Assembly (NCBI GenBank): GCA_964625145.1
Contig: CAZVAQ010000003.1
Coordinates: 1 to 39,143, forward strand
DNA: 39,143 nucleotides
Source: an uncultured Candidatus Sumerlaeota bacterium
Lineage (GTDB): Bacteria; Sumerlaeota; Sumerlaeia; SLMS01; JAHLLQ01
Direction of reading: 5' to 3'
A program made the position numbers and the translations under genes. The notes under the pieces were generated by a model. That model was given only the letters and a program-made list of their open reading frames with translations, ran no database searches and was not told where the DNA came from. Below are positions 15,984-39,143 of the stretch, piece by piece. Every line of letters starts with the position of its first letter. Within the stretch, counting starts at the first letter, position 1.

Positions 15984-17426
15984 TCAATGAACCGATAGCC
16001 AGCTTCCGGGGACGGTTGGTGGATCAACCACGTTGGCTGATTCCCAATAGATGTTGTCGATGAAGAAGGTTGGTGTCGCCGCGCTGGTTCCATTCGCCAG
16101 GAAGTCAAAGCCAATGCCCTCAAGGAGGCCGTCGAACTGGCCATTGCCGGCGACCTCCGCGATGTTGAAACCCGCGGCGTCGGCGGGGATGGTGTACTTC
16201 TCCCCTTCCGCGGTGGGGGAGAAGGTGTGGTTGGTGATCCAGATATCGCCGTCCATGTCCAACAGCACAAAGCGGACGAGTTGCGAACCCGGCATGTTCG
16301 TCCGCATGCGCCATGTCAGTCGTTCAGCGCTCTGCAGGTCCAAGGGACTCTCTGGCAGGCGATACCGCACGCCAAAGTTCGCCCCTGCATTGAAGTTTGC
16401 CGACGCACGCAGCGAAGCGTTGCCTTCATCAACCTCGTTGGGCACGGTGGTGATCGCCATGCCGTTGTATGCGGTGCCGAATCGCGTCCACTCGCCCGGA
16501 GATCCCATGGGGAAGCCACCAGAGGTCGTGTCGGATTCGATATCCGTGATGAGATGCGGTGCACCCGGGTCTTCGGGGTCCGGCGAGTCGATCGCATTGT
16601 GGCTTGTGCTGTCGAAATAGACGAAGTGGTCTCGGGTGGGCAATGCGTCGCCCATGAAGTTCAAGTTCTCCAAACTGTCGTAGATGCGAAAATTGGTCGG
16701 GAATGCATTCGAAGGACCATACGCGCATGTGTAGGTGGGACGAGCCTTGATGCGCGGGCCGCCTTCGGCCTGGATGTACCAGTCCACAACGTAGCGCCCT
16801 AGCTGATCCTCGTCCAACTCAATTGTCAGCTTGTACCATCCACCGGGTCGGACGTGATGAGCGGGATCCGCCGGTTGAAAGACCAGGCTGCTGCCCGGAT
16901 CACCGGATCGCCCCGCGGCATTGTCCGGCTGCACGGTCAGGTAGACGAGCAATGCATTTGCCGGCAGGTTCGGAATGCTGTTTCGGACGCTGGCGCGGCC
17001 GGGGCCGATCTCGAAATCGATCTCGCGCGCGGCATTGGCGGCTGCTCCTGACTGATCCGAATACAGAAACGCGCCCAGACTCACCCGTGCATTGGCTTCC
17101 ATCGGCGGGATATACACGACCCACTCGTACATGCCGGTGGTGAAGGTCTGCTGCGTGCGGATCTTCGGGCGTTGGCCAGTGCCTGCCGCGGTCTTGAAGA
17201 GCATCACGCCGCGGCCATCAAACGTCGTCGCCTGATACGGTCCCGGTGCCGTGGCTGGAGGAGACATCGCCTGGGATGCATCACTCCATCCTTGCGGCGC
17301 CACTCCGGGTGCACCGGGCGTATCAAAGTTCCATGTGACGCCTTGTGCGTGCACGATGGCGACAGCCAGGACTTGCAAAGCCACAAGCAGGCTGATCCAT
17401 CCGTACTCCCTGTTCCACATCTGCAT
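15984..17426 (-). CDS. Secreted GH16-like glycoside hydrolase with C-terminal 'GEWTRFG' CBM-like domain
   Basis: Signal peptide, FTTGMYEW...GAFLY...REIDFEIG (ExDxE GH16 signature), Pro/Asp linker, a repeat-family domain and the C-terminal tail PPTVPGSWLSVH. Confidence 0.75.
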   Translation of the reverse strand: MQMWNREYGWISLLVALQVLAVAIVHAQGVTWNFDTPGAPGVAPQGWSDASQAMSPPATAPGPYQATTFDGRGVMLFKTAAGTGQRPKIRTQQTFTTGMYEWVVYIPPMEANARVSLGAFLYSDQSGAAANAAREIDFEIGPGRASVRNSIPNLPANALLVYLTVQPDNAAGRSGDPGSSLVFQPADPAHHVRPGGWYKLTIELDEDQLGRYVVDWYIQAEGGPRIKARPTYTCAYGPSNAFPTNFRIYDSLENLNFMGDALPTRDHFVYFDSTSHNAIDSPDPEDPGAPHLITDIESDTTSGGFPMGSPGEWTRFGTAYNGMAITTVPNEVDEGNASLRASANFNAGANFGVRYRLPESPLDLQSAERLTWRMRTNMPGSQLVRFVLLDMDGDIWITNHTFSPTAEGEKYTIPADAAGFNIAEVAGNGQFDGLLEGIGFDFLANGTSAATPTFFIDNIYWESANVVDPPTVPGSWLSVH

Positions 17427-17449
17427 TTGTCGGCCTCTCTCGCATGAAG

Positions 17450-17483
17450 ACGGGGGATGCAGCCAATGGACTGCATCCCCCGT
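17450..17483 (-). terminator. Strong intergenic stem-loop (partial terminator or mRNA stabiliser)
   Basis: ACGGGGGATGCAG-CCAATGGA-CTGCATCCCCCGT forms a perfect 13-bp stem downstream of the repeat-protein stop, with only a weak U-tract. Confidence 0.65.
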
Positions 17484-17527
17484 TGTGAGTCACTCGGAAT
17501 CGTCCAACCACTATTGAAACGACTCAA

Positions 17528-20368
17528 TTACTCGATGTAGATCCAATCGCCAACCGGTACGACGACGTCACCGCCCAGGACGACCTTGTCCACCCTGAAC
17601 GTATCGGTCCCGGCAAAGGTCATGTTGTCGAAGTTGAGTCCCCACAGAACGATTGCATCGGCGCTCAGGATGCCGTCGCCGCCCTGTTCGCCCAGTGTGA
17701 GGTCACCGTCGAACAGCAGCGTGACTGTGGTCCATTCGGTGCTGACGGGGAGATTGTCACTCGTCCAGACGTCGCCGTCGGCCTCGAACAATGCGAACTC
17801 TACCGTTGTGGCGGCATCGGCGACCGTCGCCTTCACGTCGAAGCTGATGCGATCCCACGGCGACCAATTGGCCGGTGAGCCGTAGGGCTTGTGGCGCACA
17901 CCGACGCGCGGGCCATCGTCCCAGGACGCGCCGACCTGCAGGTACCGCTCGCCATCGGTGGCCTCCTGCGCATCCGTCACGATGACGATGCCGTTGTAGG
18001 CTGCGCCGAAGCGGGTCCACTCTCCTTCAGTGCCCGTGTTGATGTAGTCCTCCGGCGGGAACCCACCCGAGGTAAAGTCCGGCAGTTCAATGCTGGTCAC
18101 AACCGGCAGTGACGGCGGTGGGACCGGGGACGCATCGTCGTAATAGATCTCGTCGATATGAAACTCGCTGAAGCCCGTTTGGCCGTTGCGCAGGAACGTG
18201 AAGCCAATCTGGACGATGCTGCTCAGATCCAGGACGCCGTCGCCGGCCTGTTCAGCCAACTGCGCTGTTACGGACAGGTCCTCGGTGAACTTGATGTATG
18301 GCAGACCGACATTGTGGCTGATGCCTTCCCAGATATCACCGTCGGATTCCACCACCGCGAACTTCACGCGATGCAGCCCCGGATCGGATTGACGGGCCAT
18401 GAAGGAGATGGTCGGCCCGGCGGAGATATCCAGTGGTGCATTGGGAATGTCGTAGCGAATGCCAAAACCCCAGCTGGCGTCCGCATCCCAATCGGCATAG
18501 ACGCCGAGGGACTTGTTGCCTGCTGCGGCTTGACTCGGATCCTCGTCGATGTACATGCCGCCAAAATGCACGCCAAAGCGTGTCCACTCGCCGGGATTCC
18601 CTTGGCCGGGGAAGCGCGGGGGGTCCTGCAGGGTATCCTCTTCTATCCCCGTGATCAGATTGTCAGCGATGGGGAGCGGATCGTCGTAGTAGATCTCGTC
18701 AAAATGGAATGTCGTGGAGCCCGTTTGCCCATTGCGCATGAAGGTGAAGCCAATGTGGCTCACGTTCGTGAGGTCAAGGATGCCGTCGCCACCTTGATCG
18801 GCGATCTCCAGCGTCTGCTGCAGGTTCTCGCGATACACTTCATAGGTCGTGGTGATGTCATGCGACGCGCCTGTCCAGATGTCGCCGTCCAGCTCCACAA
18901 CCGTGAACTGCACGCGATGAGCGCCGCGATTGGTCTGGCGGGCCATGAAGGAAATATCAGGCCCGACCGAAAGGTCGAACGGAACCTCCGTCAGGTCGTA
19001 GCGAACGCCGAATCCCCAGCTCGCGTCCGCATCCCAGTCACCCACAACCGCGAGGGACTTGCTGCCGGATGCCGCGTTGGCCGGGTTCGTGTCGATCGAC
19101 ATGCCGCCAAAGTGTACGCCAAAACGCGTCCACTCGCCCGGATCACCCTGGCCGGGGAAACGCGGCGGGTCCTGCACCGCATCGTTCTCGATGCCGGTGA
19201 TCAGGTTGTCCGGCGGCGGAGGTGGCTCCTCCTGCAGGCGGATGTTGTCCACGAACAACGATTGAGTACCCGCGCCCGCGGTGCTGCGGAAATCAACACC
19301 GATGCGTACCAGGGAGGAAAGATCTGTCGAAGGTCCCGGTCCGTCGGCAAAGATGAGATCCGTGCCCAGGTTCACTGTCTGTGTGGACCAGCTCGTGCCG
19401 ACAGGCACATTCGACGAGATGGAAATGTTGCCGGCAGTGTCCTCCACGACAAAGTTCACCGTGCTGCCTGCGACCACCGCGTTCGCGCGGATGTCGTACG
19501 CAACGATGGGATATGCCGACCAGTCGGTGTTGCCTGTGTAGAGTCCGTAGCGCGAACCAACTGACCCCCCCGCGCTCCAGTCTGCGTCGAGCTGCAGGAA
19601 ATGGGAGCCATCGGACGCATTCCCAGCATCCTGCTGGATGCCAATGCCGTTGTACGCCGCGCCAAAGCGCGTCCACTCGCCCTCCACGCCCGGGGGGAAA
19701 CCACCGCTCGTGAAGTCGGGAGGTTCGATGCTTGTCACCAGCGGCAGGGCCGGCAGTGTTGCCGACTCCTCTGCAGCGTAGTAGACTTCGTCGAAGTTGA
19801 AGGTCGAGTACCCTACCTGCCCGTTGCGCAGGATGGTGAAGCCGATCTGCACCACATTGCTCAGGTCCAGCACGCTGTTGCCGCCCGGATCGGCCAGCTC
19901 CAAGGTCGCGGACAAGTCCTCGTAAAACTTTGTGTAGTCGGTGCCAACCTCGTGCTGAACGCCGGTCCAGATGTCACCGTCACCCTCCACAACGGTGAAC
20001 TGCACGCGGGCGGCGCCGGGAGTCGTTTGGCGCGCCATAAAGGAGATCTGGGGCGCAGAAGACAGGTCCAGAGGCGCGGAGAGCACGTCATAGCGTATCC
20101 CCATCCCCCAACCGCCGGCATCCCAGTTCGCACCGACTGCCAGCGAATTGTTTCCGGCAGCGGCGTTGGCGGGATTCGTGTCGATGACCATGCTGTCAAA
20201 CGGCACGCCAAACCGGGTCCATTCACCCGGGGGACCGCCATCGGGGAACCCGGGAGGCACCGCAACCGTATCCGTCTCGATCCCGGTGATCAAGATTGGC
20301 GCCGCGGAAGCGCCCGTGCCCGCGGCGAGGATTACGGCCGTGGAAAGCAAGAATGCCAATCTCTTCAT
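17528..20368 (-). CDS. Secreted non-catalytic protein (~946 aa) with five tandem ~180-aa CBM-like repeats
   Basis: Signal peptide MKRLAFLLSTAVILAAGTGASA/AP with AAGGA upstream. Five repeats each contain ITGIE/VTSIE...GEWTRFG...G.RY...(F/V)D(E/N/K)(I/V), and four of the five contain DGD(I/V)W. C-terminal tail VVVPVGDWIYIE. Confidence 0.85.
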   Translation of the reverse strand: MKRLAFLLSTAVILAAGTGASAAPILITGIETDTVAVPPGFPDGGPPGEWTRFGVPFDSMVIDTNPANAAAGNNSLAVGANWDAGGWGMGIRYDVLSAPLDLSSAPQISFMARQTTPGAARVQFTVVEGDGDIWTGVQHEVGTDYTKFYEDLSATLELADPGGNSVLDLSNVVQIGFTILRNGQVGYSTFNFDEVYYAAEESATLPALPLVTSIEPPDFTSGGFPPGVEGEWTRFGAAYNGIGIQQDAGNASDGSHFLQLDADWSAGGSVGSRYGLYTGNTDWSAYPIVAYDIRANAVVAGSTVNFVVEDTAGNISISSNVPVGTSWSTQTVNLGTDLIFADGPGPSTDLSSLVRIGVDFRSTAGAGTQSLFVDNIRLQEEPPPPPDNLITGIENDAVQDPPRFPGQGDPGEWTRFGVHFGGMSIDTNPANAASGSKSLAVVGDWDADASWGFGVRYDLTEVPFDLSVGPDISFMARQTNRGAHRVQFTVVELDGDIWTGASHDITTTYEVYRENLQQTLEIADQGGDGILDLTNVSHIGFTFMRNGQTGSTTFHFDEIYYDDPLPIADNLITGIEEDTLQDPPRFPGQGNPGEWTRFGVHFGGMYIDEDPSQAAAGNKSLGVYADWDADASWGFGIRYDIPNAPLDISAGPTISFMARQSDPGLHRVKFAVVESDGDIWEGISHNVGLPYIKFTEDLSVTAQLAEQAGDGVLDLSSIVQIGFTFLRNGQTGFSEFHIDEIYYDDASPVPPPSLPVVTSIELPDFTSGGFPPEDYINTGTEGEWTRFGAAYNGIVIVTDAQEATDGERYLQVGASWDDGPRVGVRHKPYGSPANWSPWDRISFDVKATVADAATTVEFALFEADGDVWTSDNLPVSTEWTTVTLLFDGDLTLGEQGGDGILSADAIVLWGLNFDNMTFAGTDTFRVDKVVLGGDVVVPVGDWIYIE

Positions 20369-20406
20369 TGCGTTCGTCCTTTCGTTGTCGTGCGGGCGGG
20401 GGGTGA

Positions 20407-21045
20407 TCAGTTGAAGCGGGGAACATCCCCGAGACTGATGGTTCCGTTGCTGGGGTCGTATGCTCCGGTGATTGGCCACAGGTTGATCGGCTTGCCCATG
20501 TTGCGGGCGGATGACTCGCGGTCGGGCCCAAAGGAGGACAGCACCCAGTTCAGCGAAACTCCCTCGCGCCGGATTGCTTGTCCTTCGTTGAACACATCGG
20601 TTGAACTGGCGGGCGGCCAGTAATTGATCCACAGCAGATAGCCAAATGTTCCCGGCAGGTTGGCGTTGAAGGGCTTTTGCTCCTGAAAGACATCGCGCGT
20701 CGCCTCGATGCTCGACAGGTAGGCAACCGGCGACGTCAGCGGCACGAAGGTTTCCATCGTGGAGTATTCCCAACGCTGCCCCGCGGGAACACCCGCCAGG
20801 TTGCGCTCAATCCAATCCATCGGGTATTTGTTGTAATCCACATGGTAGGACTCAATCGCCGTGGCGACGGTGCGCATGTCGGCGGCCATCCGCGTGACCT
20901 TGGAGCGCACCTGCGCCTCCAGGAAGTTGGGGACGGCAATGGCGGCCAGGATCGCGATGATGGCCACGACGATTAGCAGTTCGATCAGGGTGAAGGCCGA
21001 GAGACGACGCTGTTGCACAATACGAGCGGGGGAAGATGGAAGCAT
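20407..21045 (-). CDS. Prepilin-type N-methylation (GspG/pseudopilin-like) protein
   Basis: A|FTLIELLIVVAIIAILAAIAVPNFLEAQVRSKV, LTSPVAY, SFGPD, YDPSNGTISLGDV. The start is placed at the nearest ATG (21045). Confidence 0.9.
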   Translation of the reverse strand: MLPSSPARIVQQRRLSAFTLIELLIVVAIIAILAAIAVPNFLEAQVRSKVTRMAADMRTVATAIESYHVDYNKYPMDWIERNLAGVPAGQRWEYSTMETFVPLTSPVAYLSSIEATRDVFQEQKPFNANLPGTFGYLLWINYWPPASSTDVFNEGQAIRREGVSLNWVLSSFGPDRESSARNMGKPINLWPITGAYDPSNGTISLGDVPRFN

Positions 21046-21160
21046 CTTGATGGGCCCTTTCGCCCCGGTAGGGATCAGGCCTGCGGGATCGCAGACTTCC
21101 GCAGGCCCTTCTGACTGGATGATGCCCCGGTTAGCTGCTCCCCCCGGCGAAGTCAACAGG

Positions 21161-21269
21161 TTTTGTGCAGACTGGAATAAATTATCCTTGCACTCCACTG
21201 CGGTCAATAATAACCCTCCGCGCGTATTGGCAAACTGGATCACAGACTTTCATTCCAGACGAGAAATTA
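21161..21269. promoter_or_regulatory. Two candidate ROK-repressor operators in a divergent promoter region
   Basis: Imperfect 21-bp palindromes TTTTGTGCAGACTGGAATAAA (21161-21181) and TTCATTCCAGACGAGAAATTA (21249-21269) share the half-site TT(T/C)ATTCCAG. A TTGACT-17-TAACCG minus-strand promoter-like element lies next to the first site. Confidence 0.5.
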
Positions 21270-21288
21270 CCCCTCGCGGGGCCATGCC

Positions 21289-22365
21289 ATGCAGTTCACC
21301 AGCGCCGACACCTCCAGCCTGCGGTCGCACAACACTCTGGTACTCCTGCGCCAGATCCGCGCCCTGCAGCCGGTCAGCGCGAAGGTTCTGGTCGAGAAGA
21401 CCGGCATGCGCGCCTCCAGTATCTCCCGCCTTCTTCGCATCCTGGCCGAGCGCGGCCTCGTCGCCTCCCGCGGCGTGGAGTCCAGCAACGGTTCCAGCGG
21501 CCGCCCCGCGGAGTTCTGGGGCATCAATGGCGGATTCGGTGCCGCTGTTGGGCTCTACCTCGCCTCAAACCTGGTGGCGGGCGTCACTGTCGACCTTACG
21601 GGCAAGATCCTCGACACCTGTGTCGTGCCCCTGCGCGATCCCAGCTCCCTGACACCCCGAAAAATCCACAATCTCCTGCGCCAGGCTTTCGATCGACTCA
21701 CCTCCTCCGGACATATCGCCTCCCACCCACTCATCGGCGTCGGAGTCGCAACCATGGGCCTCGTCGATCAGGAGAACTTCCGCATCGGCTACTTCGATGC
21801 CAGTCTCAACCTGTCGGATTTTGCCCGTCTTTGTGGCGGCAAGCTTCATCTGGAGAATGACGCGAACGTGGTGGCGCGCGGCGAAGTCACACACGGCTCA
21901 CTGGCCGGAGTCTCCGACGCTGTCGTGCTCTACGCTCACGAAGGAATCGGCGCGGGGTTGATCGTCAACGGGGCCTTGGTCAAGGGCAGCCATGGTGCAG
22001 CCGGCGAGGTGGGTTATCGTGCCTGCCAGTTGATCTCAAACCCCCTCGACAGCTCCGCGCCCGATGTTCTTGAGCGTTTCCACAACGGCACCTGCTCGAT
22101 CATCAACTTCCTGAACCCGGAAGTCCTGCTGCTTACCGGAGATCTCTACGGTCTCCCCCCTGAAGTGATCGCCACGCTGCGCCGTCGCATCGCATCGAAC
22201 ACGAATCGCGTCGCGCGGGAAGTACGCATCTCCGTCTCGCCATGCGATCCCATGGGGGTTGCCCGGCACATCGCCACCATCGTCCTCGACGAGGAAGTCT
22301 TTGCCACACCCACTGTCCTGCATTCTGCCTGCGCGGCGATGCTGGAAGCCCAGGAGGCCAGTTGA
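21289..22365 (+). CDS. ROK family transcriptional regulator
   Basis: N-terminal wHTH (LRSHN..LLRQIR...SISRLLRIL...GLV...SSGRPA), LENDAN, GIGAGLIVNG...GSHGAAGEVG, NFLNPEVLLLTG. Confidence 0.93.
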   Translation: MQFTSADTSSLRSHNTLVLLRQIRALQPVSAKVLVEKTGMRASSISRLLRILAERGLVASRGVESSNGSSGRPAEFWGINGGFGAAVGLYLASNLVAGVTVDLTGKILDTCVVPLRDPSSLTPRKIHNLLRQAFDRLTSSGHIASHPLIGVGVATMGLVDQENFRIGYFDASLNLSDFARLCGGKLHLENDANVVARGEVTHGSLAGVSDAVVLYAHEGIGAGLIVNGALVKGSHGAAGEVGYRACQLISNPLDSSAPDVLERFHNGTCSIINFLNPEVLLLTGDLYGLPPEVIATLRRRIASNTNRVAREVRISVSPCDPMGVARHIATIVLDEEVFATPTVLHSACAAMLEAQEAS

Positions 22366-26655: not shown

Positions 26656-28010
26656 AGATCCCCCGTGAATTGCGCGAGCTGTTTGGGAGCGTGCCCGGCC
26701 TTCTTGCCTTCGCAGTGACCAGCATTCTGCTGCTGGCATCGCTTTACCCGCTCATCATCATGGTGCGCACTGCCTTCATGTCCGTTGGCGATCCCATCGA
26801 AGGTACCCCTGCGGAGATCATCCTGGCCGAGGCCAACGACAGCGGGATGACCTTGCAGAACCTGCCGATGATGGCAGGAATGTGGGATGATGAGAGAGGC
26901 TTTGCGAGGGATGACTCGACATGGAACTACCGTGAATATAATAGGCCCAAGACGAATCCAGATGATGTCGTCGCTGGATTCGAGGCAAATCGAAACGGTG
27001 CCGCCTTTCACTTCACTTGGGGAGGTGACCTTCGACGCTTTTCCCGTTTCGAGATCGAGGCCAGCGAGGGAGATCGATGGTCAATCGCATGGCATAACAT
27101 CAACGGTGACATTGCAATCCAGCAGGTGGAGTCCATCACAGGTCCAATGTGGGTCGTACCGGACCTCAACATCTCTGTATCCTTACCGGTAGATCGCCGT
27201 GGCCAGCCATTTGACCCCGTCCAGATCACCGGGTTCACGCTGATTCCGCGAAGTCAGTCGGAACACTGGTTCCGCGTGACCCTTTACCCCCGCCTGTTCA
27301 CGTTTGCGAACTTCCTCGACGTCTGGCGCGGCGACAATTTCTCGCGCTACACGTTCAACAGCCTGCTCGTCGCCATCTGCGTCACACTGGGCAGCGTCAT
27401 CACCAGCCTGCTCGCCGGTTATGCCTTTGCACGCAGCGAATGGAAATTCCGCGGCGCCTTCTGGGCAATCATGCTGGGCAGCATGCTCATCCCCTCCCAG
27501 GTGCTCTTGATCCCCGCCTTCCTCATCCTGCAGCACTTTCCGCTCTTCGGCGGCAACGACCTGTTTGGACAGGGAGGCATCGGCATGCTCGATTCCTACT
27601 CGGGTCTGATCCTGCCGAACCTTGTCATGCCCCTGGGCATCTTCCTTGTTCGGCAGAGTCTGTTGTCGCTCCCCGATGCCTTGGAAGAGGCCGCCGTCAT
27701 GGATGGCGCCTCGATCCTGCAATTGTTGCGCTACATTGTGGCGCCGATGCTGCGCCCGATTCTGGCGACCATCGCATTGCTTGCGTTCCTCTTCAACTGG
27801 AACTCATTCATCTTCCCGCTCATCCTGATCCAGACGCCTGAAATGCGCACGCTCCCCGTCGGGCTCGCGCTCTTCAGCGCCCGGATGGAAGTGGACTGGG
27901 TGCATCTCATGGCCGCGTCTACCATCACCGCCCTGCCGATCTTCATCATGTTCCTGTTCTTCCAGCGGCAACTGATTGCCGGATTTGTCCACGAAGGAGT
28001 CAAGGGATGA
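26652..28010 (+). CDS. Carbohydrate ABC transporter permease (MalG/UgpE-like) with a large extracytoplasmic insertion
   Basis: FNSLLVA, AGYAFAR, LDSYSGLILP, EAA loop (LEEAAVMDGAS), WNSFIFP, TLPVGL. About 170 extra polar residues follow the first TM. Confidence 0.93.
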   Translation: MKIPRELRELFGSVPGLLAFAVTSILLLASLYPLIIMVRTAFMSVGDPIEGTPAEIILAEANDSGMTLQNLPMMAGMWDDERGFARDDSTWNYREYNRPKTNPDDVVAGFEANRNGAAFHFTWGGDLRRFSRFEIEASEGDRWSIAWHNINGDIAIQQVESITGPMWVVPDLNISVSLPVDRRGQPFDPVQITGFTLIPRSQSEHWFRVTLYPRLFTFANFLDVWRGDNFSRYTFNSLLVAICVTLGSVITSLLAGYAFARSEWKFRGAFWAIMLGSMLIPSQVLLIPAFLILQHFPLFGGNDLFGQGGIGMLDSYSGLILPNLVMPLGIFLVRQSLLSLPDALEEAAVMDGASILQLLRYIVAPMLRPILATIALLAFLFNWNSFIFPLILIQTPEMRTLPVGLALFSARMEVDWVHLMAASTITALPIFIMFLFFQRQLIAGFVHEGVKG

Positions 28011-28969
28011 TCGCCCACGCACGAACACTCCTGCTGGTTGCTGCCGTCGGATTGCTTTGTCACGGCTTCTGCGAGGCACAACAGCCCGGCACGGCTTATC
28101 GATGGCGGGCGCCGGGGGCATATTTCGGCGAGCCGACACCCATCTCAGACCGCGACGAGGCCAGCACTTCACAATCGTCGTTCAGCATCGGCTATCGCGC
28201 AGAGCCGGTCACCGAAACCCGCAGTCGCGACATACTGATCGGCAAGTACCGGGTCGTCCCAAATCCTGCCCTGGGCTATGCCTACGCAGGGTTCGCGATT
28301 CCATTCAACACGCCGATGGCCTTGAACAGTCAGGCGGCCTTTCAGTTCGACGCGCGCACCGATTCATCCATCGACCGGTTGGAAGTGGTTCTGCGCGACA
28401 CATCACGTCGCCGCGCCACCCATGTGGTTACGCTCGAACCATCGAAGGAATGGACCACCGTGTCGGTCCCCGCCGCACAACTGGCTTCCGTGGACCAGGA
28501 TGCCATTGAGAGCGCCGCCGTCGTTGTGCTGGCGCCGGGAGAGGGAACCATTGAAGTCAGCAACGTGCAACTTCCGGTTCGTGCACTCGTCAAGGATGTC
28601 AGCGTTATCGAGGAAATTCGCACAGCCCCCAAGTGGTACACCGATGCCGAAATGGGAGTGCGCGTGGCGCAGCGTCTCGACCGGCCCATCCTCATCCGCC
28701 TCAACAACTCGAGTGAGGGGGCCATGACGCGATTGGACAGTGATCAATGGCGCGGCGTCACTGAGCAGACTGTCAATATTGTGCTTTCATCGGAGGACTT
28801 GAGCTCGCTTCCGGAAGGATTTGAGCTAATGTCCTTCCGATCGCAAGATCCCCTGATCTACCTGTTTGGACCGGGCGGGGAATTGATCATTGATGCCGCC
28901 GCATCAGACAGTGGCGCAAAGTCAATGGCGGATGCATTGGCGAAACGGGCTGGGAGCCGAAGCCAATGA
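28007..28969 (+). CDS. Secreted hypothetical protein: CBM-like beta-sandwich plus degenerate thioredoxin-like domain
   Basis: Signal peptide. YAGF.IPF..P..L....FQFDAR...LEVVLRD...WTTVSVP...IEVSNVQL, then PKWYTDAEMGVRVAQRLDRPILI without a CxxC. Confidence 0.6.
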   Translation: MIAHARTLLLVAAVGLLCHGFCEAQQPGTAYRWRAPGAYFGEPTPISDRDEASTSQSSFSIGYRAEPVTETRSRDILIGKYRVVPNPALGYAYAGFAIPFNTPMALNSQAAFQFDARTDSSIDRLEVVLRDTSRRRATHVVTLEPSKEWTTVSVPAAQLASVDQDAIESAAVVVLAPGEGTIEVSNVQLPVRALVKDVSVIEEIRTAPKWYTDAEMGVRVAQRLDRPILIRLNNSSEGAMTRLDSDQWRGVTEQTVNIVLSSEDLSSLPEGFELMSFRSQDPLIYLFGPGGELIIDAAASDSGAKSMADALAKRAGSRSQ

Positions 28970-31587
28970 TTGCCAATGATGCCACCCTTGCCGGGCTGCT
29001 GCGGCAACTCTGCCGTGAGGCCCGGGCAGCGCAACGTGATGAGTCATTCCCTTCCTTCGGACACGGAGTCCATGCATTGCCCGGCAACCGCCTGCTCATC
29101 ACTCCCCGTGCTCGCGGCGAGAGCCGCTATCCCTACGTCCACGATGGCATGAACTTCTGGGTCTACGGCTCGGGATACATGCACGCGAACGATGGATTGT
29201 TTGCGCTCTTCCCACGCCGGACAGAGGGACAGGAGCCCGGCATCGCATTCATGGCCGCCACGCCGGCAGAAGATGGCTGGAAGCCTTTTCCCCTGTTGGG
29301 CGTTCCCCACACACCCGAAGACGACGCCGCGCCCGCTGACCGCTTTGCCGTCTTCTCCCGCACCCACGCGTGTTTTGTCACAGTGAGGGAAGGTTTGCGT
29401 TACCTTCTGCGAGTACTTCCGGTCAGTTCGCACGAGATCGTCTTCACTCTTTGCGTGCTCAATGAGGGTACTGCGCCGGAATCGTTGCTTCTATCCGCCT
29501 TCTTCAACCCGATGTTGCGACACCAACTTCACGAGACCGACGAGGACCGGTGGTTTCGCAGTGTTCGCATCCGGCAGCGGGCCGATCATGCGGCGTCGTT
29601 CCTCTTTCACGTCAATGAAGACAAGGATCGCACGACATCGCTGGCGCAATACGCCATCATCGACCGCCAATGTGTTGCCGGTGGGGGAGCACAGATTCAC
29701 CGGACGGAAGAAACACCCTCGCGAGTGGCCTACATGGGAGGTGTGTCGCGGTCATTGGCCAATGCGCGCTCCCTGCGCACTGGAACATTTGGGGAATCCT
29801 GCTCCCGGCGTACATTCGTCGAACCCACCATTGCGGGGGACATGATTCATCTACAACTTCCACCCGGGGGTTCTTTCCGCGCCGACTACGTGTTCCGGGT
29901 GACCGAGGATCATGATCAGGCTCTGCACTGGCACAAAGAGGGTACTGCCCACAGGTGCCTTGAGAACGTCGTCGCGGAGCGGGAAGCAGCCGAGACCCGC
30001 CTTGCGGCCTCACTGGCACTGAAGGTGGCCGAATCTCGAAGTGAGTCGCTCTCTGCTGACGCCTTCAACGCCTTCCTGCCGCACCTGATGAAGCAGGTGG
30101 AGTTCTGCTCCCTGATTCGCGGTTACGTGCAGCTTTCCGAGAACTCCCTGATCGGCATTCGCGACATCTTCCAGGCCCTGGAGGCTCTCACGTATTGGCG
30201 ACCCGACGCCGCCCGAGCCAAGATGCTCGAGGCCCTCGGCTTCACGCTGGAAGATGGCCGATGCCTTCGCCAATACTCGCTACCCAATCGCAATGGCGAA
30301 CCGGGCCGCGCCGACGTCCGTCCCTTCATTGACCAGGGGGTGTGGGTCATATCTGCGATCACCACGTACGTGCGCCTCACCGGCGATGCCGCCTTCCTTT
30401 CAGAAAGTTGCGGCTACCATCGGCTTGTGGATCCAGGATCAAGTCGAGTGGTCAAGTCGACGCGCGTGGATTTAGTGCTCGATCATCTGCGTCGCATCCT
30501 CGACTATATGCTTGCTCAAATCGACCCCCGCACCGGTTGCCTGCGCGCGCTGTACGGCGATTGGAATGACGCCCTGGATGGCCTTGGTACCCTGCCCGGT
30601 GATTCCGCTGGCTACGGCACGGGAGTCAGCGTGATGGCTTCGCTTCAGTTGCTTCAGAATCTGCGCGAAATGCGCGAACTGCTTCAGCATGTACCGAAGC
30701 CAGGTACCATGCAGGAACTCGACCGTCTCGGTGAGCAGGAGGAGCGACTGGCCACTTCCTTGCTCAAGCATGCAATACATGGTACCTCGGAAGGTTCCCA
30801 GCGCATCATTCACGGTTGGGGCCATGAAGGATCGTATTGCGTCGGCAGCTACCACGATGTCGATGGAGCCTCTCGCGACAGCCTCACCTCCAATGCCTTC
30901 TGGGTCCTATCCGGCATGCTCGAGCGACATCCACGGACACGCGCTGACATCCTTGCCGCGTTCGATCGGCTCGATTCCAAGTATGGCTTGCGCACGTTCC
31001 AGCCGGAGTTTCCGGCAGGGGAGGGGCGCTTTGGCCGCATTGGCAAGCTCCCGCCCGGCACCGCTGAAAACGCGGGCACATACGCGCATGCCACCGCCTT
31101 CGGCATCATGGCCTTGTTCGAAATGGGAGAACCGCAGCGCGCATGGCGACAACTCGAGAAGATCCTGCCCTTCGCGCCACTCCACACGAACCTCTCCCAC
31201 TCTCCATTTGTCATGCCCAACTCCTACGGCTATAATCCAGAGCTTGGGATCGATGGGCAGAACATGAACGATTGGCAGACCGGCAGCTCCAACGTCGTTC
31301 TCAAGACGATCCTTCGCCATGTCGTTGGACTTCGCGTGCAGGGAGACAGCATCCTGCTGCGCCCCGCTGCGTGGTGCCCATTCCGGAATTGGCAAGTTCA
31401 GATCACGGCACGTACCCGCCGCTTTCAAATCCACTACAGTTGTTCCGATGTTGGGGCGCGAACGTTTACTGTAAACGGAGAGCAATACCCCGGACAACTC
31501 AACGCACGAGAAGGAGCAGTCGGCATTCTCCTGGACCAATCGCATTTTCCGGAAAAGTCAATTGTGCAGATCGTCATAAGCGACTAA
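28966..31587 (+). CDS. GH94-family glycoside phosphorylase
   Basis: IGIRDIFQ (G.RD..Q), GDWNDALDG (catalytic DWND), GVSVMA, PGTAENAGTYAHA, WQTGS. No signal peptide. Confidence 0.85.
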   Translation: MIANDATLAGLLRQLCREARAAQRDESFPSFGHGVHALPGNRLLITPRARGESRYPYVHDGMNFWVYGSGYMHANDGLFALFPRRTEGQEPGIAFMAATPAEDGWKPFPLLGVPHTPEDDAAPADRFAVFSRTHACFVTVREGLRYLLRVLPVSSHEIVFTLCVLNEGTAPESLLLSAFFNPMLRHQLHETDEDRWFRSVRIRQRADHAASFLFHVNEDKDRTTSLAQYAIIDRQCVAGGGAQIHRTEETPSRVAYMGGVSRSLANARSLRTGTFGESCSRRTFVEPTIAGDMIHLQLPPGGSFRADYVFRVTEDHDQALHWHKEGTAHRCLENVVAEREAAETRLAASLALKVAESRSESLSADAFNAFLPHLMKQVEFCSLIRGYVQLSENSLIGIRDIFQALEALTYWRPDAARAKMLEALGFTLEDGRCLRQYSLPNRNGEPGRADVRPFIDQGVWVISAITTYVRLTGDAAFLSESCGYHRLVDPGSSRVVKSTRVDLVLDHLRRILDYMLAQIDPRTGCLRALYGDWNDALDGLGTLPGDSAGYGTGVSVMASLQLLQNLREMRELLQHVPKPGTMQELDRLGEQEERLATSLLKHAIHGTSEGSQRIIHGWGHEGSYCVGSYHDVDGASRDSLTSNAFWVLSGMLERHPRTRADILAAFDRLDSKYGLRTFQPEFPAGEGRFGRIGKLPPGTAENAGTYAHATAFGIMALFEMGEPQRAWRQLEKILPFAPLHTNLSHSPFVMPNSYGYNPELGIDGQNMNDWQTGSSNVVLKTILRHVVGLRVQGDSILLRPAAWCPFRNWQVQITARTRRFQIHYSCSDVGARTFTVNGEQYPGQLNAREGAVGILLDQSHFPEKSIVQIVISD

Positions 31588-31686
31588 ATGCTCGCCAATT
31601 GCTGCATACTGAGCTGTCTCTGCTCTCGGAGACATGCCCGCCAGCAATGAAGTGAGCTAGGCCTTTGTGAAGGCTCATGCCCAGCG

Positions 31687-33915
31687 TCACCACAGGCCGA
31701 ACATGTCAATTGTCGCTGCGGGCGCGGGCGCCGGGATGACCTTCACGGCGATGTCGCGCTCGAAATCGGGGACAGGCACTCGCAGTTCGCCGTCGGCACT
31801 GTGGGCGGTGGTGGCGTGGACGATGCCTGCGCTTGTCCACGTGTCGTGGAATTCCACGCGGTAATCGCCGTCGATCATGTTGCGAAAGACCATCTCCGTG
31901 CCGCGCAGGACGCCGCCATGCTCCAGCCCCCAATCGCTCTGCATGTCGTACAACCATGCATATGCATGGCTGGGTCCAATCATCCCGATGGCGCGGACGA
32001 TGTTGCTCACGGCGCCATCGAACTCGTATGACCGGATCCGCACCCAATCCTGGCCCGTGTTTACAATTTGAACAGTGTGACTTCCGGAGGCAAGTGGCAC
32101 TGTGATGACAAGGTTCGTCGCGCCATTCTGCAGGTCCTGGTTGCGAACCGTCGTGCCATCAACCTTGACCTGAATCCGGTTGGTGCCGGCGCTTGAGACG
32201 GTCATGACATTGATGCGCAGCACCGATCCCTCCGCCAATGTCAGCGTGAACGACGGGTCGGAACGCAGTGCGGACTGGTAGCTGCCGTGCAGCCATTGTG
32301 ACAAGCTGTCGATGCCGGGAAACATGCCGTCATCGTTGATGACGAATGCCTTCTGCGGCGAAGGAGCCCAAAAATCGACGATGCCCGGATGTGCCTCCAC
32401 CGTTCGCGGTTGCCCAATCTGCACGACCTCGGGATTGCGAAACTGTAGTGACTTGCCGGCAAGGGTCTCACCTTCCAGGTAGGCCGCGAGCGGCGCGAAC
32501 TGGGCATCGTGGCCGTATTGCTCGATGTATTCCCACCACCAGTACATCGCGCCCGACCCCAGCATGGCGGCGGTCCAGATGCCGTTGTGCAGGACCAAGC
32601 CGTCGACCAATTGCTGGTCATAGGGGGCACCGAGCGACCCGATTCTTCCCTCCGGCGTGCCGCCCGGTGCGCCGAACTCCGCGAACAGGACCGGCTTGCC
32701 GTAAGTCCCCAGCGTCGAGCGAAGCCTCTCGTACTGCCGGATCTTGTCGTCGCCATACTCGTGATTCTGCACGATCTCCATGGAGGGAAGCGACCAGATC
32801 GGATGAAAACCAGAGTGCTCTGAACTGGTGCTAACCAGGTGCCCGAAGGGATCGTTGGCCTTCAGCCATTCGCCCATCTCGTGATGCCACGCGGCAACAT
32901 TCGCGCGCTGCTCGGCGCTCTCGCGAAAGCCCTCGGTAAACTGGACCTCGTTGAACAGCTCCCAGCAAAGGACACTCGTCGAATACCCCCATCGCGCGAT
33001 GATGTAGCGAAGCCGGCGCTTTGTCAGCTCCTTCGCCTGCTCGTTGGTGAAGAACTCCTGCGGATTGTTCAGGAAGCCGCCATCGTCCGCGCGCGCGGCG
33101 TTGTAGGGGTTCTCCGACCAGTTGGGATTCACGGTCGTTGTGAACTGCCCATGATAGTGCAGCGCGATCATCAGCGCGATGTCGCGTTCCTCCGCCATCT
33201 CCACGATGCGGTCGATCCTTGCCGCAAGGGGAAGACTGTACCGCCCCAGGCCCTGATAGTAGCCCGTGTGGTGCGACGAACTCCATTCCAGCGATTGGCC
33301 CCGGTAGAAGTGCGTCATCCAGATCCGCGCGAAGTTCTCCCCGGAACCGGCCATCGCATCCATCCATCGCCGGTAATCGTTCGTTCCCGCGGCCGTCGCC
33401 CAGGCGATGTTGCGCCCGATGGGGTGATACGGCGAACCGTCGTCATGGGCCAGGAAGCGTCCATCGCGCGGATCAACGCCGACGTAGCCCGGCTTGTCAC
33501 TGTATCCGGCCAGAAATGATCCCGCGTGTTCCAGGGTCGACGTGCCGTTCAGGTCCGTCACGACCAGGTCGAAGAAATGGTGACCGGTCTGGCGCGGCGC
33601 GAACCGCACTTTCCACGATGGGTTGCTACCGTTGGTGATGTACTCCGTCGCCGTGCCGCTAAAGCTAAAGTCCATGCTCCAGAAGGCGGGCACTGTGACG
33701 GTTCTGCCATCCGGCTGCAAGATGACCGCGCGCGCATCGACTTCGTGATAGTCAAACGGGTTGTCGTATTGTTCGGAAAGTTGGAAGGAAACCTCGACCT
33801 TCTCGTACTGGCCCACCAGCCACGGTGACACTTTCACGCTGGAGACGTTCGTTGCCGGGAGCAAGCCTGCCGATGCGCACAGACCGGCAACAAGCGCGAT
33901 ACGGGAGAGAGGCAC
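31687..33915 (-). CDS. Secreted DUF5060 + clan GH-A (GH5-like) glycoside hydrolase with inserted beta-sandwich
   Basis: GTG start at 33915 with AAGG upstream and a signal peptide. YEKVEV..YDNPFD, WKVRFAP, GENFARIWM, RYIIARWGYS, WELFNEV, FAEFG, MYWWW. Tail PAPAPAATIDMFGLW. Confidence 0.85.
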   Translation of the reverse strand: MPLSRIALVAGLCASAGLLPATNVSSVKVSPWLVGQYEKVEVSFQLSEQYDNPFDYHEVDARAVILQPDGRTVTVPAFWSMDFSFSGTATEYITNGSNPSWKVRFAPRQTGHHFFDLVVTDLNGTSTLEHAGSFLAGYSDKPGYVGVDPRDGRFLAHDDGSPYHPIGRNIAWATAAGTNDYRRWMDAMAGSGENFARIWMTHFYRGQSLEWSSSHHTGYYQGLGRYSLPLAARIDRIVEMAEERDIALMIALHYHGQFTTTVNPNWSENPYNAARADDGGFLNNPQEFFTNEQAKELTKRRLRYIIARWGYSTSVLCWELFNEVQFTEGFRESAEQRANVAAWHHEMGEWLKANDPFGHLVSTSSEHSGFHPIWSLPSMEIVQNHEYGDDKIRQYERLRSTLGTYGKPVLFAEFGAPGGTPEGRIGSLGAPYDQQLVDGLVLHNGIWTAAMLGSGAMYWWWEYIEQYGHDAQFAPLAAYLEGETLAGKSLQFRNPEVVQIGQPRTVEAHPGIVDFWAPSPQKAFVINDDGMFPGIDSLSQWLHGSYQSALRSDPSFTLTLAEGSVLRINVMTVSSAGTNRIQVKVDGTTVRNQDLQNGATNLVITVPLASGSHTVQIVNTGQDWVRIRSYEFDGAVSNIVRAIGMIGPSHAYAWLYDMQSDWGLEHGGVLRGTEMVFRNMIDGDYRVEFHDTWTSAGIVHATTAHSADGELRVPVPDFERDIAVKVIPAPAPAATIDMFGLW

Positions 33916-33978
33916 TACCTTGTCCTTCCATGCCTTGCTGGCAGCGGGGTGTTGCACAAAGCTTCTGCATCGGGCCCT

Positions 33979-34037
33979 GAAAAAGACAAGCAGAGGAACG
34001 GCGTCGGGGTTGTACTCCCCTCGGGCCGTCCCTCTGC
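33979..34037 (-). terminator. Rho-independent terminator-like hairpin between the CBM-like gene and the downstream hydrolase
   Basis: Minus strand GCAGAGGGACGGC...GCCGTTCCTCTGC long stem followed by TTGTCTTTTTC. Confidence 0.7.
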
Positions 34038-34057
34038 CAGTCACCCCCTCGCCAGGA

Positions 34058-35263
34058 TCAGTAAATGGCGAAGCCATCCCCAGAGGCGGGTTGCGGTGGC
34101 GTGCTTTCCGCCACGGCTCGAATCTCATCCACGTACACGTGGTTGATCTCGCCCTGCGCCGTCGCGCTGGTTATGATGCCATTGCGCATGAGATGGGACG
34201 AGTTGAAAGTTTCGAGCGCATCATGATCCAAGGCGAAGACCAGGGTTTGGAAACCGGCATTGGCCTGCAGCGTCTGGGAATCATGGGTATGGTAAGTGTA
34301 GTATGCCGAATCGGAAATGAACCCGAACTCGTCCGGGACTGCTGACTGCGTGAAGTAGGCGACGTCCAGGGGGGTGCCGCTTTCGTTCTCCAGCATCATG
34401 TCGACTTCGATGAAGTTGTAGTTGCTGATGTCCGTCGGGCGTCCATCAAAGCCCGGCAAGAAGCCATTCTGCCAAGACCAGGCCGGACCGTAGGGCCCGT
34501 TCGCGCCCTCAGCGTATTGCTGTTGGTAGTACAATACCCCATCGGTATCCGGGTAATCGATGCGCTCAAAGCCGGTATGGTTCTGCCCCGAGTTTCCAAC
34601 GATCGCATTGCCGTTGAAGTTCATGAAGATCCCGTGGAAGCCTCCATCCGACGCCGTCGGAGTGAAGTCGCAATAGACGCGTGAAGTGAGCGGTGTCCCC
34701 ACCGAGCGCACTTCATCGATGTAGTATTGCAGCGGTCCCCCCGCATAACCGCCCGGGAAGGCTCGAATGCTCACTCCCCACCCCTTGATATGCGCGACCT
34801 GGGGCGGCGTCAGCGACGCCAGGTTGAAAGTGATCGTCTTGGCGGGCTCACCGGCCGTCAATGTCACGTCCGACATGCCAACAAAGGTGTAGGCGTTCGT
34901 GGCCTGAACAAAGAACTGGAGGTTGTGGGTTGGCAGGTCACCCTCGTAGCGGATGTCCATCTCGATGGCGGACAAACCGGTAAGATCAACGCCACCTGCC
35001 GACGGCTGGAACACTGCCCCCGTGTTGTTGTAGCTGTCAGTGATCGATCCGGCACCATTGATGGTGAAGGTCAACTCCGTGGTTTCTGTGTTCTCATTGA
35101 AGTGTGTCGTGATATTCGAGATCGTGCCCGAGCCTGTGCGCCAGGACTCGGTCGAGCCGTCCTCGAAATTGTTCAGCACATGGGGGCTTTGGGCAGTGAC
35201 CTGGGTGGAGAGTCCGCAAAGCAATGTCATCGCGAGTGCCGCTGCCAGCTTGTTGACTGCCAT
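34058..35263 (-). CDS. Secreted non-catalytic protein with two CBM-like beta-sandwich domains
   Basis: Signal peptide MAVNKLAAALAMTLLCGLSTQVTA/Q. NNFEDGSTESW, DLTGLSAIEMDI...YYIDEVR, then DISNYNFIEVDM...VYVDEIR. Tail PPQPASGDGFAIY. Confidence 0.75.
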   Translation of the reverse strand: MAVNKLAAALAMTLLCGLSTQVTAQSPHVLNNFEDGSTESWRTGSGTISNITTHFNENTETTELTFTINGAGSITDSYNNTGAVFQPSAGGVDLTGLSAIEMDIRYEGDLPTHNLQFFVQATNAYTFVGMSDVTLTAGEPAKTITFNLASLTPPQVAHIKGWGVSIRAFPGGYAGGPLQYYIDEVRSVGTPLTSRVYCDFTPTASDGGFHGIFMNFNGNAIVGNSGQNHTGFERIDYPDTDGVLYYQQQYAEGANGPYGPAWSWQNGFLPGFDGRPTDISNYNFIEVDMMLENESGTPLDVAYFTQSAVPDEFGFISDSAYYTYHTHDSQTLQANAGFQTLVFALDHDALETFNSSHLMRNGIITSATAQGEINHVYVDEIRAVAESTPPQPASGDGFAIY

Positions 35264-35390
35264 GGGTGCATACCGTCCTGTCTTGGGATGGTGGAGCCCA
35301 TGAAAGGGGCTCCGGGGGGGTCTCATTGCCGCTCGCATCTACTGTCCTCGCCTGCCGTTTGGGGAGGTTCCTCTGGTGGCCGGCAGGGTC

Positions 35391-39103: not shown

Positions 39104-39143
39104 GGGGGGGGCAGCCTCTGGCGGGGGGGTCACTGAAGTTGGT

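Follow-up and report, generated by a model that had tools for sequence, protein, structure and literature searches.

In the genome of this uncultured bacterium, whose 75-species phylum is probably Sumerlaeota, we found that 54 of 2841 predicted proteins end in the same short tail, P-x(3-5)-[DE]-x-[WF]-[SA]-[IVL]-[YFHW]-COOH, where the rate at internal positions predicts 0.84. The carriers, mostly glycan-active enzymes and peptidases, are strongly enriched for signal peptides, and their relatives across this small, little-studied phylum end in the same 6-7-residue acidic-tryptophan-aliphatic-tyrosine motif on a flexible linker. The tail looks like an undescribed address label for export or surface attachment. 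No Pfam or NCBIfam model covers it, and literature searches listed no paper that describes it, although secretome tables in supplementary files, which were not covered, could bear on this; the term "c-terminal" was found 0 times in PMC11535203 and 0 times in the passages searched of PMC8092238.

The starting point was a window of 39,143 nucleotides, in which a first-pass annotation had noticed that four signal-peptide proteins end in a Pro-containing linker and a short aromatic tail, and that a fifth protein carries a similar motif near its end. All five sequences are present as described, and the observation is real, but much larger than was first noted. The coordinates of the features are collected in Table 1. 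An internal control proposed at the same time also holds, as the DUF5060-GH5 protein 31687 reads ...FERDIAVKV followed by IPAPAPAATIDMFGLW, while its paralogue 35623 reads ...FRTDVGVKIRED and stops. By matrix score only 34058 is a strong member among the four, 15984 and 31687 are weak, and 17528 belongs to a variant class; all four are nevertheless confirmed by their orthologues, which keep the tail.

Table 1. Features of the 39,143-nucleotide window that bear on the C-terminal tail.
Feature	Position	Strand	Gene or reading frame	Sequence	Matrix score	Homologues and other evidence
Canonical C-terminal tag of the tandem CBM-like protein	34061..34099	-	ORF 34058..35338; gene 34058..35263, start at Met26	PPQPASGDGFAIY	16.1	9 of 12 database homologues end in the tag; the orthologue in genome G001 ends SDGLAVY
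C-terminal tag of the DUF5060-GH5 protein	31690..31737	-	ORF 31687..34128	IPAPAPAATIDMFGLW	2.8	Closest homologues end DLFGIY, DMMGIY, DAFLIQ, NSWLLH, 13-17 residues after the strand D-I-A-V-K-V
Variant tag of a protein built of six CBM11-like modules	17531..17566	-	ORF 17528..20773, likely start 20368	VVVPVGDWIYIE		Variant class [DE][WF]xΦΦ[polar]$
Variant tag	15987..16025	-	15984..17426	DPPTVPGSWLSVH	4.2	Homologues 66-79% identical end GSWMAIR, GSWIAIR, GSWLEVH, SSWVEIH and ADWMVVY
Same motif in an internal position, 22 residues before the stop, followed by a 22-residue acidic and Pro-rich extension	4187..4207	+	Gene 3479..4276	SDVWAIY		The orthologue in genome G017 (55% identical) also has GDAWILS plus a 19-residue extension; three other relatives end QWTIY, NWVLYE and PWQLYW
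Tail-less DUF5060-GH5 paralogue (internal control)	35623..38436	-		Ends ...FRTDVGVKIRED		Pfam DUF5060, Cellulase and F5/8 type C
Pseudopilin gene	6933..7490
Pseudopilin gene	38441..39133

To determine whether the tail exceeds chance, we made our own rough gene call of the whole genome and built a position matrix of the last 8 residues. This matrix scores above 8 for the 54 C-termini, while the expectation of 0.84 derives from 317 hits in 1,067,797 internal positions, and 50 random internal draws gave 0.70. Since the matrix was trained on these same ends, we also used a fixed pattern as a less circular count, and [DE].[WFLM].[ILVMF][YFWH]$ matches 40 C-termini against 1.50 expected. Two variants are enriched as well: [DE][WF].[ILVMFNT][YFW]$ was found at 6 C-termini against 0.46 expected, and [DE][WF].Φ.Φ.[polar]$ at 6 against 0.42, the latter including GDWIYIE from the window. 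A minority of proteins carry 1-4 extra residues, or about 20, after the motif, which argues against a strict reading of the free carboxylate. The carriers form 36 BLAST-unrelated groups. Among the 40 that were scanned with Pfam, we found Golvesin_C in 5, M10 in 4, C25 in 3 and NAGPA in 3, followed by chondroitinase B, GH18, S8, BNR, VanY, deacetylase, M14 and others, and a further carrier is pullulanase-like. This cargo is typical of an exoproteome. Conservation is at the protein level since synonymous codons are mixed (GAT 16/GAC 15, ATC 12/ATT 10, TAC 19/TAT 14).

Two outcomes had been named in advance as grounds for giving up the idea of a sorting or anchoring signal. One was the absence of enrichment on secreted proteins. 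With a strict signal-peptide heuristic of our own making, 32 of 48 complete tail proteins are positive against 375 of 2550 others (14.7%), an odds ratio of 11.6 with p = 1e-15; the remaining 16 complete carriers fail this strict test. The other was that the tail might be a needed strand of each preceding domain. Neither structures nor complexes were predicted in this work, hence this point was addressed only indirectly, from sequence. The tail lies outside complete Pfam envelopes: VanY ends at residue 343 of 355, at profile position 131 of 132, Alpha-amylase_C ends at 645 of 662, and CarboxypepD_reg at 727 of 739. Within one orthologue family the linker varies from about 10 to 37 residues, and at least 25 of the 120 listed homologues of the DUF5060-GH5 protein stop 12 residues or fewer after the last strand, without any tail. 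The interpretation of a modular peptide for secretion, surface display or docking onto a scaffold or pilus is thus supported, though no one has shown that the tail directs any of these, or what reads it.

The tail is kept in orthologues that are 27-76% identical, while more distant homologues carry something else in the same place. Of 12 homologues of 34058, 2 carry PEP-CTERM, with TIGR02595 over its cut-off. Among homologues of 31687, 3 carry a T9SS C-terminal domain (PF18962), one (P0096) gives a dockerin hit, many have dockerin-like ends, and the tail-less homologues counted above carry nothing. This provides a clean natural experiment, in which the same enzyme body is fitted with four different C-terminal address modules in different phyla. 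Within its own phylum, the tail is present in the order of this organism and in G045, a genome of another class (12 pattern hits against 3 controls), and samples of two further genomes, G036 and G016, also show it. The DNA pattern counts undercount lineages with Leu at position -2 and are not evidence that the tag is absent there. The tail is not enriched in five named genomes from other phyla. As to the placement of the organism, no 16S gene was found, a search for loci related to 34058 found nothing, a URO-D-like protein gave only distant hits, an RpoB fragment is 49% identical or less to four named genomes, a possible connection to Fervidibacter gave nothing, and the only useful label is the NCBI name on protein P0035.

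We next looked for machinery that could read the tail. Tail genes are not tied to any one neighboring machinery gene, and the only small families always found beside them are GntR/LacI-type regulators and metallophosphoesterases, which are locus content. The genome encodes five secretin-domain proteins, a C-terminal processing peptidase (Ctp; TIGR00225, 341 bits, cut-off 218.6), three HtrA-type proteases, the third of which was judged by eye from its translation, and an RseP-like protein judged from the gene listing alone; none is linked to the tail by position. PorU-like C25 peptidases are near-universal in the phylum (73/75), though their co-occurrence with the tail comes down to a single lineage. 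In other families of the phylum, the core C25 forms of about 780, 1500 and 1800 residues have no tail, although some of these reading frames were probably wrong, and this gave neither a variant tag nor support. In G036, pseudopilins and two T2SSE ATPases lie near the region between two C25 genes, mixed with housekeeping genes, which is a weak lead only.

Our favored explanation, which we hold with moderate confidence, is that the tail is a short linear C-terminal sorting tag, read after Sec export, that marks part of the exported proteome of this organism. The sequences themselves show that carriers have N-terminal Sec-type signal peptides, so they reach the periplasm, and that the last folded domain is followed by a Pro/Ser/Thr-rich linker of variable length ending in [DE]-x(0-1)-[WF]-[small]-[IVL]-[YFWH], usually at the very C-terminus. 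What follows is inferred. In this view, the exposed end with its free carboxylate is bound by a factor specific to the phylum, in the periplasm or at the outer membrane, and both faces of the strand look constrained, with W at -4 and an aliphatic at -2 on one side and a small residue at -3 and an aromatic at -1 on the other. The factor would then pass the folded cargo across the outer membrane, hold it on the cell surface, or both. No receptor, translocon or processing enzyme has been identified, and we have no data on where the proteins end up or whether the tail is removed. It is only speculation that the receptor belongs either to the secretin and pseudopilin (type II-like) machinery or to the PorU-like C25 peptidases, which could clip the tag after the conserved acidic residue. 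A bolder version, which we regard as unlikely but which the evidence leaves standing, is a new sorting pathway in a diderm that does not depend on T9SS, where a PorU-like clan CD (C25) transpeptidase clips the 6-7-residue peptide after Asp/Glu and the cargo is exported or covalently attached to the cell surface, possibly together with the type II/pilus machinery. This would make the tag the shortest known bacterial sorting signal without a membrane helix, with a new sortase class behind it.

Other explanations are less likely. The tail could instead be a docking peptide, by which enzymes and CBM proteins already outside the cell bind non-covalently to a surface scaffold or to a pseudopilin or pilus fiber, like a very small dockerin. 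Structural look-alikes of 34058 in Bacillota carry Dockerin_1 in 99% of one cluster, Planctomycetota-labelled homologues of 31687 end in a dockerin-like module, pilin-like genes make up 8 of 173 neighbors within two genes of a tail gene against 1.3% of all genes, and the window has two pseudopilin genes. However, no protein with repeated receptor modules was identified, the pseudopilin enrichment may only reflect polysaccharide-use loci in general, and 6-7 fixed residues give little binding surface. Peptidases, a VanY-like enzyme and a di-haem peroxidase also carry the tail, which fits a general export label better than a glycan-degrading complex, and we consider docking unlikely. Somewhat more doubtful is a recognition motif for a periplasmic protease with a PDZ domain (Ctp/Prc or a DegS-like HtrA), serving maturation, turnover or envelope-stress sensing rather than sorting. 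PDZ domains bind hydrophobic C-termini with a free carboxylate, DegS reads aromatic C-terminal ends of outer-membrane proteins, and the genome has the Ctp and HtrA proteases with PDZ domains; the tail sequence is compatible with such a ligand, although binding in a PDZ groove was not assayed. Yet Ctp and HtrA occur in almost all bacteria (PDZ_2 was detected in 14 of 14 control genomes), while the tail is confined to one phylum among the genomes tested. In addition, homologues swap the tail for sorting or docking modules rather than degrons, and conservation reaches back to position -6 and to a proline at -10 to -12, further than in a typical PDZ ligand.

A structural role, as a last strand or cap conserved for folding, is very unlikely. 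Many carriers do end in beta-rich modules such as CBM-like, Ig-like and CarboxypepD_reg domains, but the 36 unrelated groups include an amidase-like VanY domain and C25 peptidases, and the complete Pfam envelopes, the variable linker, and the homologues and paralogues that are complete without the tail all speak against it. An artefact of chance, composition bias, a DNA repeat at gene ends or mis-called stops is refuted despite our rough gene call: 54 ends stand against 0.84 expected, the C-terminus is fixed by the stop codon whatever start is chosen, synonymous codons and all three stop codons are used, and independent database proteins from other assemblies have the same ends.

C-terminal sorting tags have repeatedly led to the discovery of their machinery, including sortases, exosortases, rhombosortase and T9SS, and all known ones are either a motif with a membrane helix and a basic cluster or a folded domain. 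The tag described here is a peptide of about 13 residues with no helix that marks roughly 2% of the proteome in an uncultured-dominated, polysaccharide-degrading phylum. It would predict the exoproteome of that phylum directly from sequence, point to an export or attachment route that is still unidentified and, if it proves transferable, offer a very small portable tag for secretion or display.

Compared with the tripartite signals (PEP-CTERM/exosortase, LPXTG/sortase, GlyGly-CTERM/rhombosortase, MYXO-CTERM and PGF-CTERM), the tail is likewise a short C-terminal homology region shared by many otherwise unrelated secreted proteins of one genome, with a restricted taxonomic range. Those signals have a signature motif, then a membrane helix, then a basic cluster. 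Here, as the first-pass annotation had argued for the window, we found neither helix nor basic cluster: the longest strictly hydrophobic run in the last 30 residues is 5 or fewer in 54 of 54, and 38 of 54 have no K or R in the last 8 residues. No NCBIfam sorting-domain model hits the carriers, and TIGR02595, which hits the two foreign homologues, hits none of the five tag-bearing proteins scanned alongside them. A search for another C-terminal tag class in this genome gave only 13 tripartite-like ends, most of which look like ordinary membrane proteins. A T1SS C-terminal signal, which acts in one-step export without an N-terminal signal peptide, does not agree with the enrichment for Sec-type signal peptides.

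The beta-signal of outer-membrane barrel proteins and the aromatic ends that activate DegS share with the tail an aromatic last residue, hydrophobic residues at alternate positions and reading at the free C-terminus. However, the carriers are soluble enzymes and CBM proteins rather than barrels, and their hydrophobic positions are -4, -2 and -1, with an acidic residue at -6 or -5 and a proline linker. Dockerins are also add-on C-terminal modules on glycan-active enzymes and occupy this position in look-alikes and homologues, yet they are calcium-binding duplicated segments of about 60-70 residues. No such repeat is present here, Dockerin_1 (PF00404) is neither among the 25 commonest Pfam families of the 40 carriers nor in the window proteins, and no cohesin-like partner was found. 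The short recognition tails of clan CD transpeptidases (PorU, legumain-type ligases, GPI transamidase) resemble the tag in having a conserved acidic residue a few residues before the C-terminus, though no cleavage is shown and we have no data on the specificity of the C25 proteins.

The T9SS C-terminal domain (type A/B sorting domains of Bacteroidota and allies) likewise sits at the C-terminus of Sec-exported hydrolases, peptidases and adhesin-like proteins, with no membrane helix and dozens of carriers per genome, and it fills the same slot in homologues of the DUF5060-GH5 protein. We rejected membership in this system. PF18962 finds nothing in the six-frame genome, Por_Secre_tail is not among the 25 commonest families of the 40 carriers, and searches for PorV (NF033710) and SprA (TIGR04189) gave no hit in this genome, which is 91% complete; the PF18962 and SprA searches had no positive control. 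Three carriers and a core 1774-residue protein resemble PorU, but the C25 proteins score 28-169 bits against a PorU (NF033707) cut-off of 420. The T9SS domain is a folded module of about 70-100 residues that matches PF18962 or TIGR04183, whereas this tag has about 13 residues, of which 5-6 are fixed; if our inferred model holds, it would do the job of the T9SS C-terminal domain as a short peptide rather than an 80-residue fold.

The first-pass annotation had proposed, from the sequence alone, that four signal-peptide proteins end in a Pro-containing linker and a short aromatic tail and that a fifth has a similar stretch near its end. To verify this, we translated the reading frames and found that all five C-terminal sequences are present as it had given them. 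The observation is therefore confirmed, and the analyses below extend it from 5 proteins to more than 50, and to a phylum. The surroundings of these genes are polysaccharide-related and include glycosyltransferases, an ABC sugar transporter, a GH94-like enzyme, GntR/LacI-type and ROK regulators, and two pseudopilin-like genes.

Positions of the proteins, motifs and neighboring genes examined (G000, G017 and G036 are genomes of the phylum; C numbers denote their contigs and L numbers their loci)
Position	Strand	Feature
Window 3479..4276	+	Protein without a Pfam family
Window 4187-4276		Motif in an internal position of 3479..4276, followed by an acidic, Pro-rich extension of about 20 residues; same arrangement in its 55%-identical orthologue (L173, G017)
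Window 4282-6936	+	884-residue protein with a GH72-like N-terminal part fused to a family 2 glycosyltransferase; in a cluster with an ABC exporter, a GT4 and a polysaccharide pyruvyl transferase
Window 6933-7490	+	Single GspG-like pseudopilin gene
Window 15984..17426	-	Protein without a Pfam family; contains the same module type as 17528..20368
Window 17528..20368	-	Secreted protein of six tandem CBM11-like modules with the recurring motif PGEWTRFG; no catalytic domain
Window 31687..34128	-	DUF5060-GH5 paralogue
Window 34058..35263	-	Protein of two CBM-like modules
Window 35623..38436	-	DUF5060-GH5 paralogue
Window 38441-39133	-	Single GspG-like pseudopilin gene
G000 C16:26261-27004		Single GspG-like pseudopilin gene
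G000 C53:15874-16593		Single GspG-like pseudopilin gene
G000 C69:9970-15294		Peptidase_C25
G000 C113:6804-9764, C60:13477-16827, C51:2181-4157 and others		Family of about 12 paralogues with a shared C-terminal region
G036 C1:590001-625000 (L207/L208)		Region with two C25 genes, pseudopilin genes and ATPase genes

To determine whether the shared ending exceeds chance, we examined the whole genome in which the window lies (3.84 Mb in 329 contigs, 91% complete), where we called 2841 genes with a home-made codon-usage model; the C-terminus of an ORF does not depend on the start that is chosen. Of the 173 proteins ending in W, F or Y, many share one ending. A position matrix of the last eight residues scored above 8 for 54 proteins and above 10 for 52, while random internal positions gave 0.70 and 0.22, respectively. 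Across all 1,067,797 internal positions there were 317 hits, which predicts 0.84 at the C-termini. Since the matrix was trained on these same ends, we also used fixed patterns, and found that [DE].[WFLM].[ILVMF][YFWH]$ matches 40 C-termini against 1.50 expected, with two variants matching 6 against 0.46 and 6 against 0.42. The resulting logo reads V/I at -14/-13, P at -12 to -10, D (31) or E (10) at -6, W (31), F (9), L or M at -4, S/A at -3, I/V/L at -2, and Y (33), F, H or W at -1. The motif sits at the exact end in 54 cases, and only 2 and 4 cases have one or two extra residues, respectively. Codons at the fixed positions are mixed and all three stop codons occur, hence selection is on the peptide and not on a DNA repeat.

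We next asked which proteins carry the tail. With their last 15 residues removed, the 54 proteins form 36 BLAST-unrelated groups of sizes 9, 7, 3, 2, and 2, plus 31 singletons. In the G000 paralogue family, the shared C-terminal region reads Y-x-L-x-D-[VI]-D-x-N-G-x-x-T-x-H-G-P...S-S-V-x-[DE]-W-x-L-Y. A Pfam search of 40 of the 54 carriers returned Golvesin_C (5), M10 (4), C25 (3), NAGPA (3), and beta-helix and DUF11 (2 each), with single cases including chondroitinase B, glucoamylase-like, GHL10, S8, BNR, VanY, GH18, polysaccharide deacetylase, M14, and di-haem peroxidase. Seven more carriers that were scanned separately include a pullulanase-like enzyme, an Amidase_3 domain protein, and FG-GAP/BNR proteins, while one of the seven matched no family. 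Enrichment on secreted proteins had been set in advance as a condition that a sorting signal must satisfy. With a strict signal-peptide heuristic, 32 of 48 complete carriers are positive, against 375 of 2550 others (14.7%), where six carriers truncated at the 5′ end were dropped; a looser version of the heuristic gave 44/54 against 1137/2763. No carrier has a hydrophobic run longer than 5 in its last 30 residues.

The proposal had also been staked on the tail not being a β-strand that each preceding domain needs. No structures were predicted, so our answer to this rests on sequence. Pfam envelopes are complete before the tail, with VanY ending at 343/355, Alpha-amylase_C at 645/662, and CarboxypepD_reg at 727/739. 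In the family of 3479, the spacer between the last strand and the W runs from about 10 to 37 residues, and one relative has a long Pro-Thr linker. Three other relatives end with the motif itself or with one extra residue, while the internal motif of 3479 and its orthologue could be a masked or processed form. Lastly, at least 25 of the 120 listed homologues in the DUF5060-GH5 family stop 12 residues or fewer after the last strand D-I-A-V-K-V, as does the window's own paralogue 35623.

The tail is conserved among orthologues and across several lineages. Orthologues of 34058 end SDGLAVY (59% identical), TDWQTFD, and MDWALYR (27-28%), and homologues of 15984 keep …SW[MIL][AE][IV][RH] or …DWMVVY. 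For the C25 peptidases of about 940 residues in two families of the phylum (f1 and f2), all 23 loci read end 15-27 residues after the LLFGDP motif, and by eye each has an acidic or Gly residue, then W or F, then hydrophobic residues. The phylum has only 75 species genomes in the collection that we searched. A protein 65% identical to 15984 is labeled ‘Candidatus Sumerlaeia bacterium’, so the phylum is probably Sumerlaeota, and two tag-bearing homologues are labeled ‘Candidatus Omnitrophica bacterium’. A DNA pattern for [DE]xWx[IV][YF]-stop gave, against reversed-pattern controls, 13 hits against 0 in genome G000, 11 against 1 in G001, 11 against 1 in G009, 10 against 0 in G011, 16 against 4 in G016, and 12 against 3 in G045, which belongs to another class. 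Several other families show near-control counts. However, a 400-kb sample of the complete genome G036, which scores 1 against 1, contains …SSVEDWSLY, …SSIEEWREY, and …SSVADWQLF, so that the pattern misses lineages that use Leu at position -2. The SSVx[DE]WxL[YF] form of the tag in the G000 paralogue family is also the form seen in G036. Five named genomes of other phyla (a Planctomycetaceae, two Hydrogenedentota, a Verrucomicrobiota, and a Treponema) gave 1-4 hits against 0-8 controls.

Taken together, the reading of the tail as a modular sorting or anchoring tag is supported, directly by the enrichment on secreted proteins and on sequence evidence only for the tail not being a domain strand. 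The sequences show that the carriers have Sec signal peptides and that the tag is exposed, is conserved as a peptide, and is interchangeable with sorting modules. From this we infer, without having identified what reads the tag or where the cargo goes, that it is read after Sec export by a factor specific to the phylum, leading to outer-membrane passage or surface retention. The protein of tandem CBM11-like modules could be a glycan-binding scaffold.

There are two leads for such a factor, neither of which was tested, and no complexes were modeled. One is Peptidase_C25, which is near-universal in the phylum, being present in 73 of 75 genomes at 2-9 copies in size classes of about 780, 1500, and 1800 residues, and which we found in 0 of 14 control genomes and 1 of 5 named outgroups. 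These proteins resemble PorU below its cut-off, and the conserved acidic residue could be a clan CD cleavage site; however, this co-occurrence amounts to one lineage and is weak. The other lead is the type II/pilus parts. The genome has five secretin-domain proteins and 37 pilin-like genes found by a regular expression, and the pilin-like genes are enriched near tail genes (8 of 173 neighbors against 1.3% overall). The single GspG-like pseudopilin genes sit inside polysaccharide-use-like loci, next to tail-bearing enzymes and GntR/LacI-type regulators. In the complete genome G036, two pseudopilin genes lie next to the 1842-residue C25 gene, and two T2SSE ATPase genes, one PilT-like and one GspE/PilB-like, lie upstream of the 778-residue C25 gene, with housekeeping genes in between.

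To compare the tail with known systems, we searched the carriers and the genome with existing models. No Pfam or NCBIfam model is shared by more than 5 (Pfam) or 3 (NCBIfam) of the 40 carriers, and none of those is a C-terminal sorting model. PorV, SprA, and the T9SS domain were not found in this genome, although the searches for the last two had no positive control, and the proteome has no sizeable class of tripartite C-terminal signals. Our literature searches, which included term searches within individual papers, gave no description of such a tag. Some homologues of the window proteins carry recognized modules. Of 12 database homologues of 34058, including the protein itself, nine end in the tag (…NWNLY, …SWELY, …NWSLY, and others), two end in PEP-CTERM (TIGR02595 at 19.3 and 16.8 bits, cut-off 16), and one ends otherwise. 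Among the 120 listed homologues of 31687, by our reading, 9 carry the tag 13-17 residues after the last strand and 2 carry it plus four more residues, while three have a T9SS domain (PF18962) and one, among the Planctomycetota-labeled homologues, has a precomputed dockerin hit (PF00404). Many of the Planctomycetota-labeled homologues (database proteins P0047-P0124) end in a dockerin-like EF-hand module, ...DLNxDGxVDxxDFxxLAxxWxxxCPxxWP[FLY]-COOH, which is itself a conserved aromatic C-terminus. The same slot therefore holds recognized sorting or docking modules in other lineages.
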